Below the pieces are notes generated by a model that saw only the letters and a list, made by a program, of their open reading frames with translations, was not told the DNA's origin and searched no databases. The translations under genes and the position numbers were made by a program. DNA of 64,000 bases, taken from a virus. Positions within the stretch are counted from its first letter, which is position 1; the number at the start of each line of letters is the position of its first letter. The DNA lies in the UHGV virus genome UHGV-0179803; one strand, 5' to 3'. Below, piece by piece: positions 3,887-12,194 of the stretch.

Positions 3887-4608
3887 AGAAGGTTTTAGAG
3901 TTTCAATTTGAAATTGCTGAAATAGGTGGAGAAAGACGGAGGCTTGTTAATGCAAGAGATTTGCATAAACAGTTAGGCATTCGTACACGCTTTAGTGACT
4001 GGATTAAAAGGTCATTAATTAATCAAAATTTCTTGCAAGATGTTGATTTTATCGTGGTTCTCAAAAATGAGTATGACGCAAGTAAGTTTGGTGGCATACG
4101 TAAGCAAGAGGAATATTTATGCACTGTTGAGACAGCTAAACACCTTGCTATGATGGCGAAGACACCGAAAGGTAAAGAGGTTCGTAATTACTTTATCGAA
4201 ATTGAAAGAAAGTACCGCGAGTACATGATTGAGCAACGGAGGTTGGCAAGGAAGATGCTTAACATGGAAAGCTCAACAGATATGGTCTGCATAACTGTTT
4301 CGGCGAAGAAAATCGCTAAAGTGCTTGGGATAACCATGTCTGTGTTTGACCTGAATGGATTCTTGAGGACGGATGGTTACAAGCATAAACATTGGTATAA
4401 CGCAACTCTTGCTGGTCAGGAGGTGTGGAATGATTGGGTTATGAAAAGCAAATATGGGGGTCATAGGTTTACAAGCCAGAACAGTATTAACATTGTGCAA
4501 TGCCTGCTTTATGAAAAAGGTATTAGTAAGCTGGAGGATGACATTTGGCAAGAACTTGTTTGGATTGTGTTCATGAAGAATTGGGTTGATTATCTTGCCA
4601 ACAGATGA
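3883..4608 (+). CDS. Bro-N/KilA-N/AntA-like DNA-binding protein (antirepressor-type)
   Basis: N-terminal FQFEIAEIGGERRRLVNARDLHKQLG...FSDWIKR pattern resembles phage Bro-N/AntA N-terminal domains. Confidence 0.45.
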   Translation: MKKVLEFQFEIAEIGGERRRLVNARDLHKQLGIRTRFSDWIKRSLINQNFLQDVDFIVVLKNEYDASKFGGIRKQEEYLCTVETAKHLAMMAKTPKGKEVRNYFIEIERKYREYMIEQRRLARKMLNMESSTDMVCITVSAKKIAKVLGITMSVFDLNGFLRTDGYKHKHWYNATLAGQEVWNDWVMKSKYGGHRFTSQNSINIVQCLLYEKGISKLEDDIWQELVWIVFMKNWVDYLANR

Positions 4609-5899: not shown

Positions 5900-5975
5900 G
5901 CCCCGTTAGTTCAAATGGAAGAACAGTGGCCTTCTAAGCCATAGGTTACAGGTTCGAGTCCTGTACGGGGTGCCA
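5900..5975 (+). tRNA. tRNA-Arg (anticodon TCT)
   Basis: hand-folded cloverleaf: acceptor GCCCCGT/ACGGGGT, D-stem GTTC/GAAC, anticodon loop CTTCTAA, T-arm ACAGG-TTCGAGT-CCTGT, 3' GCCA. Confidence 0.8.
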
Positions 5976-6407: not shown

Positions 6408-6809
6408 GTGCCAGCAGTACTTGCATTCCTGATAAAATATAAGCGCGTGATAAAATGGACTATCGCGGCTGTCTTACTGGTTGTAGCCTGCGCTGGAGTG
6501 CACAGTTGGTACAACACCCAGATACAAAATGCCTACAACGAAGGGGTCGCTGTAACAGAGCAGAAATGGGATAAACTGATGATGCAGCAGAAGCTACAGG
6601 CCAACCAGACGAAGTTGGAACACGCTTACGAAGTCAGAGAGCTTGAGCAAAAGCTGGCTAACATGCAGAACGCCATGAACGCTCCTGGAGCTTTTGGTGG
6701 GGCTACACAACAGCAGTTCCAGTCATCTCCAGAAGGGCAACAGAACCGGATCCCAGATAAAGTGATCGATATCTACAACGAAAGTATTAACTCGGAGGTG
6801 CAGCAATGA
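6408..6809 (+). CDS. i-spanin (Rz-like inner-membrane spanin component)
   Basis: GTG start after GGAGG; N-terminal TM segment WTIAAVLLVVACAGV then a Q/E/K-rich coiled-coil region; overlaps the next gene by 4 nt. Confidence 0.55.
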   Translation: MPAVLAFLIKYKRVIKWTIAAVLLVVACAGVHSWYNTQIQNAYNEGVAVTEQKWDKLMMQQKLQANQTKLEHAYEVRELEQKLANMQNAMNAPGAFGGATQQQFQSSPEGQQNRIPDKVIDIYNESINSEVQQ

Positions 6810-7102
6810 GGTGGTTACTTGCATTAGCGATTGCACTCACGTTTTCTATGGCCCTGGTAGGTTGTAGCTCACCTAAAAGTACGCCAGTTACAGTTGCACC
6901 GCAGAAAGTTGAACAACTTGCTGTAGAGCCTCCTGCGGCAGCTATGATCCCACCAGCAATAGCTATCCCCTTGGTGAAAGGTGCACCAGATGCGGATAAC
7001 TCTGCAATTATGAGGCAGAACAATCTCTCCTGTAGCAATGATCGTGCCAAATTAATCATCTTGCAGGATTATGTAAAATCTTTATTCAATAAGGAGAATT
7101 AA
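6806..7102 (+). CDS. o-spanin (Rz1-like outer-membrane lipoprotein)
   Basis: signal peptide ending in lipobox LVGC, proline-rich mature part; immediately downstream of and overlapping the i-spanin gene. Confidence 0.6.
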   Translation: MRWLLALAIALTFSMALVGCSSPKSTPVTVAPQKVEQLAVEPPAAAMIPPAIAIPLVKGAPDADNSAIMRQNNLSCSNDRAKLIILQDYVKSLFNKEN

Positions 7103-8217
7103 TGGCTAAAATGTATGGCCCATGCTCCCGTAAACAACAAATGATTCTGGAAAATGATGCCGACTTCCTGATCATTGGTGGGGCAGCGGGTTGTTTGTCA
7201 ATGCGACATGAGGTGATGACACCTAACGGGTGGATCAGAATATCGGAATGGGATGGTCAAGATATCCTCCAGTTTGATAAAGAAACTGGTAAGGCCATGT
7301 TTATCCAGCCTGAAGAGTTTGTTAAGCTGGAATGCGACAAACTAACCAGGATTGTGCAGGATGGTATTTGTCAGGAATTATCCGACGAGCACACAGTTCT
7401 GTACGTCCCAGAAGACGGAACAGCTTACGGTACACTTAATTTCGGAGAAGTGGCTGAACAGTATGCTAACGGTGAGTTGGCAATGCGTATGCAGACCACG
7501 TTTGTGAACATGGGTGGTACTGGCCTTGGCATTTCTGACGAAGAGCTGAAAGAAAGGGCAAGATATTACAAATTCACAGATGAGTGGTATAATTGTGATC
7601 GTCGTCAGTTGTTGCAGATCTGGTATGAGATTTACCTGAACGGTAATGATCCCCATGCCTACGTTGTTCCAACGAAAGAACAGGCTGATTTCTTGCAATA
7701 CCTCGGATCATCTTTAGGTTTCAACGCACAGATCTTCTTCGAAGAAGGTTACAAAGTTGTGTTCTCTAATGAACGTGCAGGTACGATTGCTCTTAATAAC
7801 GATGCAACGTTCGAAGAGTTTGAGCCGGAAGATGGTTACAAATATTGTTTTGCTACCACAACAGGCTATTTTATCACCAGACTGGAAAACTGCATTGCAG
7901 TGACTGGTAACAGTGGTAAATCCTTTCTTCTACAGCTTCTCCCACTAAAGATGATAGATGACCCCAACACTTCTGTGGTGATGTTCCGTAGGACAACTCC
8001 ACAACTGGAAGGTGAAGGTGGTCTGTGGCCTAAAGCACTGAGTGTGTATCTGGATCTTCCTGAGTACATGAGGCCGAAATTCAGAGAGAAAGACCATAAG
8101 TTTACTTTTCCATATTATGATGCAAAGACGGGCAAATGGAATAAGAAAAGAGACGGAGCAGTAATCAAATACTGCCATATGGAATACGTCCAAGATAAGC
8201 TGAATCATCAAGGGTAA
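7102..8217 (+). CDS. terL: large terminase subunit, N-terminal (ATPase) part, carrying an in-frame intein-like insertion
   Basis: flanks of the insertion rejoin as IIGGAAG|SGKSFLL, a GxxxxGKS Walker A; the reading frame stops at 8217 where intron-like sequence begins. Confidence 0.65.
   Translation: MAKMYGPCSRKQQMILENDADFLIIGGAAGCLSMRHEVMTPNGWIRISEWDGQDILQFDKETGKAMFIQPEEFVKLECDKLTRIVQDGICQELSDEHTVLYVPEDGTAYGTLNFGEVAEQYANGELAMRMQTTFVNMGGTGLGISDEELKERARYYKFTDEWYNCDRRQLLQIWYEIYLNGNDPHAYVVPTKEQADFLQYLGSSLGFNAQIFFEEGYKVVFSNERAGTIALNNDATFEEFEPEDGYKYCFATTTGYFITRLENCIAVTGNSGKSFLLQLLPLKMIDDPNTSVVMFRRTTPQLEGEGGLWPKALSVYLDLPEYMRPKFREKDHKFTFPYYDAKTGKWNKKRDGAVIKYCHMEYVQDKLNHQG
7192..7911 (+). other. candidate intein (240 aa) inserted in the terminase P-loop
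   Basis: begins with Cys (CLSMRHEV...), ends with Asn followed by Ser (..IAVTGN|SGKS); removing it restores a canonical Walker A. Confidence 0.5.
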
Positions 8218-8742
8218 ACAAACCTGCCCTTCGTGCCTAATTCGGTGAAACTCCTTGACAAAAGGACAATACCGAGCTACGGTTAAAGGATTAGTTGAAA
8301 CCGAGTGTAACGACTATCCCCGATGAGTGTAGGGGAGTAGAATCACAAGCGATTGGTGATCCAAACGGCACGCCAAGGAGGGAAGAGCTAGTCTGTTCCA
8401 CATGGTAACATGTGGCGGGTGTCTTAGCACACCGCGTCGGAGTAGCGATCCGGCGGGACAAAAGTGGAATATACTTTAATATGTTTTGATGAGGGTTAAC
8501 TGGTAGCTCTCGTAAAACCTCCCTAATTGCGGGGAAATCTTTACTATTGACACCACCAACCTATTATGGTAACATAATATTGGCTTCGGAGAAATACCGA
8601 AGGTATGGTAATAGCGTGTTGATTTAGATAATCCGCAGCGAAGCATCCTGATAGGATGTGTGCTCAACGACTATCGCTTACGGGCGTTAGGGCCAAGCGG
8701 CTGGGGAAACCCACAGTCTTTTAAGACTGCCGAAACGGGAGG

Positions 8743-9036
8743 ATGGGAATGTGTAAAACTAAAAAATGTGTAGATTGCCAGAGAGTCCTACCTCTTGAGG
8801 ATTTCTTTTTATCTTCTAAGAGTAATGATGGGTACTCTGGTACATGCAAGGAATGCTATATGTACTACAGAAAGAATGGATCTCGTAGAAACAAGGATAT
8901 GGTTAAGAGAGATGATGCAGCAGCGTTTATTCAAGATTTGCTAGAGAAAGGTGAGCTTTTTGAATGCAAATCTTGTCATAAAAGTATGCTCGCTGACAAT
9001 TTTACACAAAACGTGATTATGGTAGGGTATATCTAG
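8743..9036 (+). CDS. Cys-rich zinc-finger-like protein, intron-encoded
   Basis: CVDCQ...GTCKEC and CKSCH motifs; RBS GGGAGGATGGGA-ATG; inside the intervening sequence. Confidence 0.4.
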   Translation: MGMCKTKKCVDCQRVLPLEDFFLSSKSNDGYSGTCKECYMYYRKNGSRRNKDMVKRDDAAAFIQDLLEKGELFECKSCHKSMLADNFTQNVIMVGYI

Positions 9037-9053
9037 TCACGGGCAGGTGTAAA

Positions 9054-9338
9054 ATGTGTGAGAAGTTCTATCAGCTTGAGAAGAAATTTCACATAACAAA
9101 AGACGAATATTTTCGTCTACTCTCAGATCAAGATTATAAATGTGCCATTTGCGGGATATCACTTGATGAGTATAGGTCGCAAGGGTACAGAGATTTCTTT
9201 AGTGTTGATCATGACCATAAGACTGGCGCTGTAAGAGGTTTGCTTTGTGATAAGTGTAACAGAGCTTTAGGTTTTTTCCAGGAGGATGAGGAAACTCTTC
9301 TTAAAGCGGCAGAGTATTTACACACTCATAAGATATAG
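9054..9338 (+). CDS. HNH / endonuclease VII-family homing-endonuclease-like protein
   Basis: motif CAICG...SVDHDHKTGAVRGLLCDKCNRALG matches the EndoVII/HNH signature (DHDH-x-TG-x-RG-x-LC-xx-CN). Confidence 0.7.
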   Translation: MCEKFYQLEKKFHITKDEYFRLLSDQDYKCAICGISLDEYRSQGYRDFFSVDHDHKTGAVRGLLCDKCNRALGFFQEDEETLLKAAEYLHTHKI

Positions 9339-9454
9339 TCTGGTCTGCATGGAGACATGCAGCTGCCACATGGTGGCGGGGCAAGAGTAGCGACCTTGCC
9401 CGAACACAAACGACACAGTTCGATTGGGAGCAAATCGACTACCTGATTTCTCGT

Positions 9455-10534
9455 ATGAGGTCGAAATCGAAATACTCTTCACGGATGGTGATCAGCTGTA
9501 ACCCGGATTCTGAACACTATTTAGCCAAACTGGTTCGTTGGTGGCTTGACGACGAGGGCTACCCAGATGAAAGCAAGTGTGGCGTTAAGCGCTATTTCAT
9601 CCGTAGGGATGGGGAATTTATCTTCGGCGATACGCCAGAAGAGTTGATCGAGAAGTATACCTATGTTAACGGCAAAGGTGTTGAGATAATCCCAAAACCA
9701 CTCTCTATCGCTTTTATCGGTGCAACAATCCACGATAACCCCATCTGCTTGCGTGATAACCCAGAATATCTTGCATTCCTGGAAGGTCTGCCAGAGCTGG
9801 AAAAAGCACAACTCCTCTACGGTAACTGGTTCGCTAAGCCTGAAGGTGCAAACTATTTCAGTCGCACATTCTTGAAAGATGCGGATCATGTCCCCCTCGG
9901 AGCAGTTTCTGTAAGAGCATGGGATAAAGCTGGTACAGAACGTACCTCTGGCAACAAATTCCCCGACTATACAGCCAGTATCAAGGTCAGTAAGGATAGT
10001 GATGGTTACTACTACATCTCCGGTGACTATTGCCCTGAAAACGTAGATGATGGCAGATATTCTACGGGCTTGCACGGTAAGTTCTGCAAGAAAGCTGGGG
10101 AACGTGATGTTATTATCAAGAAACAGGCAGAGTTTGATGGTGAGGACTGCGTAATTGTCTTCTCTGTGGACCCCGGTCAGGCAGGTAAGAGTGAGTTTCT
10201 TACTTCATCTCGTAAACTTCTTGCCGGAGGGTTCAGGGTAGAAGAAGACCCAATGCCGTCTAACAAATCAAAACTCACCCGTTTCTCCCCGTTTGCCAAC
10301 CTTGCCCAACAAGGGATGGTGCGGCTTGTCCGGTCAAGTTTCGACCCGGATACACTGGAAGCATTTTTGACAGAGCTGGAGAAATTTAACGGCGAACGGT
10401 CAACCTTTAGCCGTAAAGATGATTGGGCTGACTCCATTGCTTCTGCAATTAACTACCTTGAAAAAGAGGAAGTTGCTATGCCATGTGTTATTCCGAAGAT
10501 TGTTTCACCCTCTATGTATAAGAGGATGATTTAA
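9455..10534 (+). CDS. terL: large terminase subunit, C-terminal part (nuclease domain exon)
   Basis: frame is open from 9332; contains ISCNPDSEHY, RAWDKAGT and DDWADSIASA acidic motifs expected of a terminase RNase-H-like nuclease domain; true 5' end depends on the splice junction. Confidence 0.65.
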   Translation: MRSKSKYSSRMVISCNPDSEHYLAKLVRWWLDDEGYPDESKCGVKRYFIRRDGEFIFGDTPEELIEKYTYVNGKGVEIIPKPLSIAFIGATIHDNPICLRDNPEYLAFLEGLPELEKAQLLYGNWFAKPEGANYFSRTFLKDADHVPLGAVSVRAWDKAGTERTSGNKFPDYTASIKVSKDSDGYYYISGDYCPENVDDGRYSTGLHGKFCKKAGERDVIIKKQAEFDGEDCVIVFSVDPGQAGKSEFLTSSRKLLAGGFRVEEDPMPSNKSKLTRFSPFANLAQQGMVRLVRSSFDPDTLEAFLTELEKFNGERSTFSRKDDWADSIASAINYLEKEEVAMPCVIPKIVSPSMYKRMI

Positions 10535-10540
10535 GTAGTT

Positions 10541-10569
10541 GCCAATCTTAGATGAATGTGTTACAATAA
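10541..10569 (+). promoter_or_regulatory. sigma70-like promoter
   Basis: TTGCCA-17 nt-TACAAT upstream of the portal gene. Confidence 0.3.
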
Positions 10570-10634
10570 TCTATAGAGCATAACTAAGCCCTCTTCGGAG
10601 GGCTATTTCTTTTGTCTAACTTGAGGGTAATCTT

Positions 10635-12194
10635 GTGTCCAAGAAAAGCCGTAGGAAAAACAACGCAGCAGCCAAAGCGAGGGCTGTGAAAAAAGCTGGA
10701 AATCAAGATGCCCAGGTGCACAATGTTCGTCTGGGAGAGATTGGTTCCGGTGCACTGGCTCAGATCCAATTTGAATCTCAGCAGATGATGGTTGAGGAGT
10801 TGCGTTGGCCCAACCTTATCGCTACCGTAGAGACGATGAAATGCGACTCAACAGTAGCTACCGCTCTGGATTCTAAATATGTACTGATCACCAAAGCCTT
10901 CAACGATTTCAAAATTCTCTGTAATGAAGAGAGTGAAGAATCTAAGAAAGCAGCAGCATTTATCGACTATGCCCTGCGTAATCTCTCTAATCAGCAAACA
11001 CTTCGTGATATTGCAAGAAGTGCAGCCACCTTTAATGAATACGGCTTCTCAATATTTGAGAAAGTTTACCGTCGTGAACAGGAAGGGGAGTACGCTGGTA
11101 AATTAGTTATTGACAAGTTTGCATTCAGACCTCAAGCGAGCCTGTCCCGCAGTAACCCGTTCCAGTTTGATAAAAATAGTCGTAAACTTGAAGGTATATG
11201 GCAGTCACCGAATGCGTTTGTTAATTTCAAACGTAATTCATACGCTGGCCCACTACTTTCTGCTCCGGCAAACTTCAACGGTGAGGAGATTTTCATTCCG
11301 GCTAAGAAAATCATGATCATGACTCTTTCCGGTACAGAGTCCAATCCGGCAGGTGTTTCACCTATGATTGGTTGTTACAGATCCTTCCGTGAGAAAGTGC
11401 TGATCGAAAACCTGGAAGTGGTTGGTTGCTCCAAAGATCTTGGTGGTGTGCTTGAGCTGAAAATACCGTCCAACATTCTGAATAAAGCAAGTATCGACCC
11501 CACCTCAATGGAAGGTCAGATGGTTGCTAACCTGATGGCAGATGCTGCAAATGCCCACTCCGGTGAACAGAGTTTCTTTATTCTCCCATCGGATCGTGAT
11601 AAATCAGGTAAAGAACAGTATTCCATGGACCTGAAAGGGATCAATGGTGCTGGTAAACAATACTCCACCAAAGATCTTGTTGATGCACGTAAGAAAGCTA
11701 TCCTTGATAGATTTGGTGCTGGTTTTATTAACTTAGGTAACGACAACGTTGGTTCTTACTCGTTGTCCGAGTCCAAACAGTCTTTACATGGTCACTTCGT
11801 TAACCGTGATATTGACATTATTGTTGAGGCTTTCAACAAAGACTTCATTCCCCAGATGCTGGCGCTGAACGGTATCTACCTCTCCAATGAGGATATGCCG
11901 AAACTCAAACCAGGGTTGACTGAAAAAGTTGACATGGAAGAGTTCTCCAAATTCGTACAGCGTATTGGTGCAGTTGGTTATCTGCCTAAAACTCCGGGTG
12001 TTATCAATAAAATCCTTGAAGTTGGTGGTTTTGACTACCGCGTTGATGAGGATATTGACACTGAAGAGTTAATGCAAATACTGGGTCAGGATGTAAGTCG
12101 GTCAGGTGACGGTATGGCGGCGGGGACCAACGGTAATGGCACGTCCAGAATGTCATCCACACGCGATAATTCTGTATCAAATATGGAAAATTAA
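10635..12194 (+). CDS. portal protein (putative)
   Basis: GTG start after GAGGG; 519 aa; position immediately after terminase; no motif-level confirmation. Confidence 0.55.
   Translation: MSKKSRRKNNAAAKARAVKKAGNQDAQVHNVRLGEIGSGALAQIQFESQQMMVEELRWPNLIATVETMKCDSTVATALDSKYVLITKAFNDFKILCNEESEESKKAAAFIDYALRNLSNQQTLRDIARSAATFNEYGFSIFEKVYRREQEGEYAGKLVIDKFAFRPQASLSRSNPFQFDKNSRKLEGIWQSPNAFVNFKRNSYAGPLLSAPANFNGEEIFIPAKKIMIMTLSGTESNPAGVSPMIGCYRSFREKVLIENLEVVGCSKDLGGVLELKIPSNILNKASIDPTSMEGQMVANLMADAANAHSGEQSFFILPSDRDKSGKEQYSMDLKGINGAGKQYSTKDLVDARKKAILDRFGAGFINLGNDNVGSYSLSESKQSLHGHFVNRDIDIIVEAFNKDFIPQMLALNGIYLSNEDMPKLKPGLTEKVDMEEFSKFVQRIGAVGYLPKTPGVINKILEVGGFDYRVDEDIDTEELMQILGQDVSRSGDGMAAGTNGNGTSRMSSTRDNSVSNMEN

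Follow-up and report, generated by a model that had tools for sequence, protein, structure and literature searches.

Two predicted td-like group I introns enclose a 32-nucleotide Walker B exon in the large terminase gene of virus genome UHGV-0179803

The stretch of 64,000 nucleotides (nt) from virus genome UHGV-0179803 analysed here, referred to as the window, raises the question of how a large terminase subunit (TerL) can be produced from a gene whose reading frame breaks off and reopens farther downstream. The TerL open reading frame (ORF) 7102-8217 on the + strand stops at the TAA of 8215-8217, and farther on a frame open from 9332 continues it, with an annotated-style ORF at 9455-10534 that corresponds to the C-terminal part; the gap holds two further ORFs, 8743-9036 (97 amino acids (aa), with frequent CxxC pairs) and 9054-9338 (94 aa). 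An earlier sequence-only reading had taken the gap 8218-9430 for a single ~1.2-kb group I intron carrying a homing endonuclease gene, and had named a covariance-model scan, a comparison with intron-less terminase homologues and a P1-P9 folding as the means of checking it. We propose instead, with a probability of roughly 0.9, that the TerL pre-mRNA 7102-10534 contains two independent self-splicing td-like group I introns placed around a 32-nt exon encoding Walker B. The window is a distant relative of the rV5-like phages (Vequintavirinae), with ~75-82% nucleotide identity in conserved genes, and no close record of it was found in the phage collection.

The group I nature of the interruption is supported by covariance-model scanning. 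An E-value scan of the 1.7-kb segment 8000-9700 with RF00028 gave two matches on the + strand, at 8169-8415 (38.0 bits, E 1e-7) and at 8461-9362 (47.9 bits, E 1e-10), corresponding to intron 1 and intron 2, which were recovered when the whole 64-kb window was compared with 4227 Rfam families (E 4e-6 and 4e-9, respectively), a comparison that revealed no group I match elsewhere in the window. These values are beyond chance and substantiate the claim that the terminase gene is broken by group I intron sequence. Each match spans model positions 1-253, and the occurrence of two separate matches over these positions already suggested two introns rather than one. The default Rfam scan returned tRNAs only, because both scores lie under the RF00028 gathering score of 50 bits. 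The relative L005 has an ORF-less copy of intron 2 with 97% identity in the core segments; at 81.4 bits this copy passes the threshold, and RF00028 gave no match on the intron-less L004.

The splice junctions were defined by alleles lacking the introns (L004, L009, L006, L010, TH18, Av-05 and nomo). Alleles without one or both introns read HQGLEYTLICFDEGTQFDWEQ unbroken, and the uninterrupted ones read ...NHQGLEYTLICFDEGTQF(D/E)W...; four coordinates, those of intron 1, the mini-exon, intron 2 and the start of exon 3 at 9413, are thereby fixed to the nucleotide (Table 1). The deletion of 8216-8464 and 8497-9412 gives VQDKLNHQGLEYTLICFDEGTQFDWEQID, which does not differ from the uninterrupted L009 protein over this stretch, and the same is true of the spliced translation around the mini-exon, NHQGLEYTLICFDEGTQFDWEQID; the spliced product matches Pfam Terminase_6N (E 8e-20) and Terminase_6C. 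A U.G wobble in P1 marks both 5' splice sites (U8215.G8226 and U8496.G8506) and is kept in five of five sequences in each intron family, both introns terminate in G (G8464 and G9412), and an in-frame stop codon lies at each 5' splice site (U^AA at 8215-8217, ^ marking the junction, and UAA at 8497-8499). A 3' site of intron 1 at G8455, which would give HQGWTKVEYT, was rejected since intron-less homologues read HQGLEYT, the correct site being G8464. The frame break at 8217 and the reopening at 9332 thus stand as originally read, whereas the true 3' exon begins at 9413.

Presence/absence polymorphism among the relatives follows the same junctions. Neither intron is found in L004 or L009, both of which carry the probable intein described below, as do L005, with an intron 2 of 344 nt that has no ORF, and L011, with intron 1 alone. 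TH18 (L002) has a larger intein and intron 1, Av-05 (L003) has the intein and an intron at the intron 2 site, and nomo (L001), devoid of the intein, has an intron 2 whose 196-aa endonuclease gene is intact; a further intron is present downstream in TH18, L009 and L011. Intron 1 is missing precisely in L004, L005, L009, nomo and Av-05, and intron 2 is missing in TH18, L004, L009 and L011, where FDEGTQF is unbroken. The identity of intron 1 reaches 97-98% in L011 and L019 and ~82% in TH18.

Read on from U8215, the 32 nt of the mini-exon specify L-EYTLICFDEG, comprising the Walker B strand and the catalytic D-E, so that intron 1 directly precedes the Walker B beta-strand and intron 2 directly follows D-E-G; the last base of the mini-exon, U8496, is also the 5' splice-site U of intron 2. 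It could be argued that 8216-9412 forms a single large group I intron or twintron in which 8465-8496 is intron sequence, given that the two ribozymes are adjacent and of the same architecture, and that the RGGGU ending of both 5' exons would make a direct joining of exon 1 to exon 3 possible, in a manner comparable to the exon skipping reported for Twort orf142 and SIOphi TerL (PMC11878797). We hold this to be extremely improbable: the joining of 8215 to 9413 shifts the frame, leads to a stop after 29 codons and removes Walker B, whereas the 32 nt encode exactly the LEYTLICFDEG of every uninterrupted homologue, relatives possess either intron alone, and the two RF00028 matches are each complete. 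The earlier view of 8218-9430 as intervening sequence consequently holds for most of the gap and fails for 8465-8496, its single intron gives way to two independent ones, and its aside that the 5' ~280 nt might be a second structured element proved well founded, this element being intron 1.

Table 1. Features of the interrupted TerL gene in the window
Feature	Coordinates	Strand	Evidence
TerL exon 1, N-extein part, aa 1-30, ends ...IIGGAAG (first half of Walker A)	7102..7191	+	ORF list; nomo reads IGGAAGSGKSF unbroken
Probable intein, 240 aa, in Walker A P-loop	7192..7911	+	absent exactly here in nomo, L006, L010
TerL exon 1, C-extein part, SGKSFLLQ...NHQG + first base of Leu codon	7912..8215	+	homologue comparison, P1
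Group I intron 1, 249 nt, no ORF	8216..8464	+	RF00028, presence/absence, structure test
Mini-exon, 32 nt, Walker B	8465..8496	+	spliced translation vs L009; 100% identical in L019
Group I intron 2, 916 nt	8497..9412	+	RF00028, presence/absence, structure test
Endonuclease N-terminal fragment, Cys-rich CxxC repeats	8743..9036	+	ORF list, nomo comparison
T-run with endonuclease frameshift	9000..9003	+	DNA alignment, translations
Endonuclease C-terminal fragment, endonuclease VII / His-Me finger domain; frame open from 8997	8997..9338	+	PF02945
TerL exon 3 (TQFDWEQIDYLISRMRS...), remaining ATPase domain + RNaseH-like nuclease domain	9413..10534	+	ORF list, Pfam, homologues

Helix models from P1 to P9 were built for both introns and are supported by covariation. 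In intron 1, P1 pairs 8210-8215 (AAGGGU) with 8226-8231 (GCCCUU) and contains the U8215.G8226 wobble; the core comprises P3 (8232-8237/8367-8372), P4 (8242-8247/8270-8275), P5 (8252-8256/8262-8266), P6 (8280-8284/8299-8303) and P7 (8312-8316/8389-8393), to which are added P7.1 (8317-8321/8332-8336), P7.2 (8342-8346/8356-8360), P9 (8398-8404/8409-8415), P9.1 (8418-8422/8429-8433) and P9.2 (8435-8441/8449-8455). The model was evaluated on five homologues, namely those of the window, L019, L011 and TH18 and the primase/helicase intron of Kuravirus XT18: 96.3% of the cells pair and 13 pairs differ on both sides, a result not equalled by any of 500 shuffles, and controls with slid partners pair in 37-45% of the cells with 0-2 compensatory pairs. 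P7 (GACUA/UAGUC) is invariant in the structure tests. The single-sequence minimum free energy fold of intron 1 independently yields P1, P4, P5, P6, P7.1 and P9, and the centroid fold yields P9.1 and P9.2. The XT18 intron, which carries an HNH ORF, is ~75% identical to intron 1 in its core, with compensatory changes in P3, P5, P7.2 and P9; it differs in residing in another gene, in holding its ORF in P6 and in having a full P8 of 7 bp.

For intron 2 the model comprises P1 (8489-8496/8506-8513, with the U8496.G8506 wobble), P3 (8518-8523/8737-8742), P4 (8528-8533/8632-8637), a P5 with a long extension, P6/P6a, P7 (8669-8673/9336-9340), P7.1/P7.2, P9 (9345-9351/9356-9362), P9.1 and P9.2 (9379-9385/9395-9401), while P8 (8743-8754/9320-9329) encloses the endonuclease gene. 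Among five homologues, 96.9% of the cells pair and 15 pairs are changed on both sides; these values are reached by 0 of 500 shuffles, and slid controls are 32-42% paired. The sequence of P8 is unrelated among L005, naam, Av-05 and nomo, yet a hairpin is possible in each. Av-05 was used only for the 5' part of intron 2 up to P9, its record being apparently rearranged at the origin. In that record (L003/L018, KM190144.1), TerL query residues 11-116 map to the opposite strand, and beyond P9 of the intron comes an inverted segment that resembles group I sequence; the record appears to be rearranged or misassembled there. A P10 covariation of intron 2 (9416-9420/8498-8502), considered from the comparison of the window with L005, was dropped, since one of its pairs is broken in L019 and nomo requires a different register.

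Both introns have P7.1/P7.2 between P7 and P3', a P9-P9.1-P9.2 tail and an AGUAGCGA loop, an arrangement of P7.1/P7.2 and tail that is shared with the introns of T4 td and phage IA2, and over its 3' 79 nt, intron 2 matches the T4 td intron with ~80% identity. By this architecture and td likeness, both may be assigned to the T4-td-like (IA2-like) type. The td intron differs in its host gene and in its endonuclease, I-TevI being a GIY-YIG enzyme encoded in P6a whereas the one here is of the EndoVII type and lies in P8; compared with td-type introns, those of the window have no P2. The idea that intron 1 is a duplicate of intron 2 was rejected, the common stretch amounting to only 32 nt with 78% identity.

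Upstream of both introns, a 240-aa insertion in the Walker A motif is probably an intein. It starts with CLSMRHEV (Cys1), ends with AVTGN (C-terminal Asn) and is followed by Ser+1, and it splits GGAAG^SGKS exactly, the window reading GGAAG^C...N^SGKS where nomo reads GGAAGSGKS. The insertion is present in L004, L005, L009, L011, L019, TH18 and Av-05 and absent in nomo, L006 and L010; eight relatives show it conserved. A phmmer search of it against the PDB found nothing, and a single-sequence AlphaFold (AF2) model was unusable (predicted local distance difference test (pLDDT) 37.8). The earlier statement that selfish elements have invaded the terminase gene is thus upheld with the probable intein included, the count being three invasions and not two.

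Several observations weigh against the proposed reading. The two introns of the window are both under the RF00028 gathering score, and all copies of intron 1 in relatives are below 50 bits as well (34-49 bits, the L011 copy reaching 49.0). The covariation sets are small, with five sequences each, and some of the structures were derived from the same sequences. P10 is weak in intron 1 and is not consistently kept in intron 2, where L019 breaks one pair. Intron 1 has no P2, and its P8 of ~2 bp (CC/GG, with a 6-nt loop) is unusual for an active core. As for the insertion in Walker A, a Pfam search gave no match, the best PDB profile match, although to an intein, has an E-value of only 0.18 and no profile match is significant, and Gly occupies the penultimate position, where His is usual.

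The near absence of P8 deserves particular attention. In intron 1 a P8 of at most 2 bp is possible, as only 10 nt (8373-8382, CCAAGGAGGG) are found between P3' and J8/7, the position at which the XT18 homologue keeps its 7-bp P8, and a literature search on group I introns without P8 returned nothing relevant. It might therefore be supposed that intron 1 is a crippled remnant that needs a host or phage factor or intron 2, or that the gene is non-functional in this assembly, a supposition to which the absence of P2, the low Rfam scores of all copies (34-49 bits) and the report of Bastillevirinae introns whose splicing occurs in vivo only (PMC11878797) would lend themselves. We consider it unlikely. 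The same vestigial P8, accompanied by intact TerL exons, is kept in the window, L019, L011 and four isolated phages of the TH18 type; a dependence on intron 2 can be dismissed, as TH18 and L011 are without it; the other core helices are intact and covarying; and without P2 there would be no L2 loop that needs a receptor in P8. The conservation of the vestigial P8 in phages that depend on this TerL gene indicates that it is presumably compatible with splicing. Intron 1 of this type is found in the only TerL gene of the four isolated phages TH18, 18-1-2, 19-1-2 and 24-2-1.

Alternatively, the insertions might remain unspliced, in which case TerL would consist of separate assembling polypeptides and the endonuclease gene would be effectively free-standing. 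The NrdA subunit of Aeh1, split by mobE, is a precedent for such assembly. Related phages' records annotate two or three 'terminase large subunit' coding sequences (CDSs), an in-frame ATG is available at 9455, and HNH insertions without splicing have been documented (PMC7344957). Nevertheless, Walker B would be lost, as it lies in a 32-nt piece without an in-frame start codon; each insertion has a complete group I core, canonically bounded and supported by covariation; and the TerL intron of the related Vequintavirinae phage CB7 was demonstrated to be spliced in vivo by reverse transcription PCR (PMC7344957). We judge this alternative to be very improbable, and the reading with two spliced introns is retained below.

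Introns in the TerL gene of rV5 have been reported (PMC3606486). The rV5-like phages nomo (MN850578), APECc02 and JES2013 have an intron at the same site as intron 2, FDEG^TQF, of which the first 177 nt and the last 113 nt are ~88% and ~92% identical, respectively, to those of the window, and which holds in the same P8 loop an endonuclease gene ~89% identical to the one described here. These phages possess an intact 196-aa endonuclease ORF, no intron 1 and no intein, and their P7.1/P7.2 region is unlike that of the window. As the host exons share only ~75% identity, the intron is better conserved than its host gene. Such homologues of intron 2 have been known from rV5-like phages since 2013. 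In TH18 and in phages 18-1-2, 19-1-2 and 24-2-1, a homologue of intron 1 (~82%) interrupts the protein at the identical position, HQG^L, shares the vestigial P8 and is not marked as an intron in the database records; this group has an intein at the same Walker A site, larger than that of the window (~329 aa), no intron 2, and another intron with an HNH gene farther downstream.

The presence of several group I introns in one essential gene is also known elsewhere. The terL intron of LL-H is a further known TerL group I intron. In Twort orf142 and in the TerL, DNA polymerase and RNR genes of Bastillevirinae, several introns are separated by small exons, and for TerL of Bastillevirinae two or three introns with small internal exons and exon skipping have been described (PMC11878797). 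These introns belong to phages of Firmicutes and are unrelated to those of the window, which is distinguished by an internal exon of 32 nt that encodes a catalytic motif and whose skipping would be out of frame.

The ends of the two upstream exons invite a remark of their own. Both terminate in RGGGU (8210-8215 and 8491-8496), the guide of intron 1 (GCCCUU, 8226-8231) is pairable with either exon end, and the guide of intron 2 (8506-8513) could form 5 bp with the end of exon 1; exon skipping or cross-docking is therefore mechanistically conceivable, with RGGGU on both exons. At the common protein position of intron 1, the intron phase is shifted by 1 nt between TH18 (GGT^TTG, ~4307-4563) and the window lineage (GGGT^TG), AGGGU being retained before the cleavage site in both. 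Synonymous changes are concentrated in the exon bases beside intron 1 (TTG GAA TAT ACT vs CTT GAG TAC ACC in intron-less relatives), in what looks like a co-conversion tract.

The intervening sequence had also been read as carrying an EndoVII/HNH-type homing endonuclease gene, in agreement with which PF02945 (Endonuclease_7) matches the ORF 9054-9338 (E 9e-23). The two Cys-rich ORFs of the gap are present as described, but they are the halves of one 196-aa gene and not two genes. The T-run within it has four T in the window, five in nomo, L008 and L019, and six in L007, which is frameshifted the other way, so that a 1-nt deletion in this run splits a single endonuclease gene into two ORFs. The DNA is ~89% identical to the intact 196-aa nomo gene, and once one T is added, the resulting 196-aa product is matched from end to end by endonuclease VII families of PHROG (phrog_1035, residues 3-195, E 3e-27). 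The N-terminal fragment with CxxC repeats is presumed to be the DNA-binding part, and the true start is likely to be AUG 8749, at the equivalent of which the intact nomo protein begins.

The gene is closely interwoven with the ribozyme: GGAGG (8738-8742), its Shine-Dalgarno sequence, doubles as the 3' strand of P3, the start codon falls within P8, and its last codons and stop lie within J8/7-P7' (AAGAUAUAGUC). In T4 introns, endonuclease translation signals are sequestered in the ribozyme structure. A search for an endonuclease-specific promoter in 6700-10700 found promoter-like sites to be no commoner than in shuffles. The gene is optional, being absent from L005, which is otherwise 97% identical, and from naam and slur16. 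The L019 copy (~8181-8779) has five T and nonetheless bears two other homopolymer indels and a change of the active site from DHDH to DHNH, which suggests that the gene is decaying independently in the window and in L019, unless sequencing errors are responsible. The T-run may be a recurrent frameshift hot spot or possibly a homopolymer sequencing error, and a scan of IMG/VR for its alleles yielded two contigs only. A -1 ribosomal slip on AAU-UUU-A would recover the full-length protein, and no sign of programming was seen.

With regard to the spread of these elements, a degenerate pattern running from the end of intron 1 across the mini-exon into the beginning of intron 2 had no match in IMG/VR and was recovered in one metagenome contig, L019 (ERZ1026772 NODE-16, 130 kb), which shares with the window the intein, both introns and the mini-exon arrangement. 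The block from intron 1 to the endonuclease (8216-9338 in the window, 7654-8779 in L019), including the mini-exon and the 5' core of intron 2, is 97-100% identical, compared with 89-94% for the flanking TerL exons and 87% for upstream DNA; this excess over the exons fits a recent horizontal spread and suggests a recent transfer of the selfish block. Further TerL introns were observed in the relatives, at ~5026-6001 in L011, ~3904-4886 in L010, ~5000-5900 in L002 and 7013-7847 in L009. They are situated after exon-3 nt ~318 and ~1012 and score 31-70 bits with RF00028. With these two other sites, the clade has at least four TerL intron sites and one intein site.

The observed matches of sequence and structure, the exact junctions and the presence/absence polymorphism among relatives lead us to infer RNA splicing, protein splicing and endonuclease activity, for which the following course may be proposed. 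TerL would be transcribed as one pre-mRNA, 7102-10534, in which each intron would remove itself by the two-step, guanosine-initiated reaction, the internal guide pairing with the end of the upstream exon and the terminal G setting the 3' site. With exon 1 joined to the mini-exon and the latter to exon 3, the mRNA would encode a 755-aa precursor, from which the probable Walker A intein would excise itself to leave a TerL of 515 aa. The stops at the 5' splice sites would keep ribosomes out of the ribozyme cores. In relatives with an intact endonuclease, the enzyme presumably cleaves the TerL alleles without intron that co-infecting phages bring in, and thereby drives homing, and its presumed inactivation in this genome by the 1-nt deletion would fit the decay phase of the homing cycle. 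A bolder set of ideas, which we regard as doubtful, is that splicing order or exon skipping, with its out-of-frame product, controls TerL, that intron 1 is a naturally minimised IA2 ribozyme without P2 and with almost no P8, and that the 1-nt phase shift in TH18 reflects guide-directed relocation by reverse splicing or intron sliding and not ordinary homing.

Selfish-element invasion of this sort is already known, and current understanding is not overturned; what is particular here is the Walker B mini-exon between the introns, the presence of three elements, an intron 1 with almost no P8, and an endonuclease gene broken by a frameshift. The three selfish elements fall within ~110 codons of mature TerL, at Walker A and before and after Walker B, a compact case of the rule by which selfish elements settle in the best-conserved catalytic sites of genes that phages cannot do without. 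The relatives offer a natural snapshot of the homing cycle, in which every combination occurs: no intron, either or both, the endonuclease gene being present, absent or independently decayed. There is also a consequence for annotation, as related genomes list TerL as two or three unrelated CDSs and an ORF-based annotation would miss the 32-nt exon, leaving predicted proteins without the catalytic motif. The tandem introns, and an intron 1 without P2 and nearly without P8, could be useful for the study of splicing order, exon skipping and minimal IA2 cores.

In the surroundings of the gene, a terminator-like hairpin (10587-10604) lies 3' of TerL exon 3. Upstream are the ORFs 6408-6809 and 6806-7102; the latter, a 98-aa ORF directly 5' of TerL, has a lipoprotein signal (…MALVGCSS), overlaps the end of its neighbour, which is annotated as an i-spanin in related records, and looks like an o-spanin. 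Its equivalent in the nomo and naam records is labelled 'putative large terminase subunit'. A tRNA gene (5900-5972, + strand) is located ~1.1 kb upstream of TerL, and three tRNA genes are clustered at 58083-58323 on the - strand, near the other end of the window.

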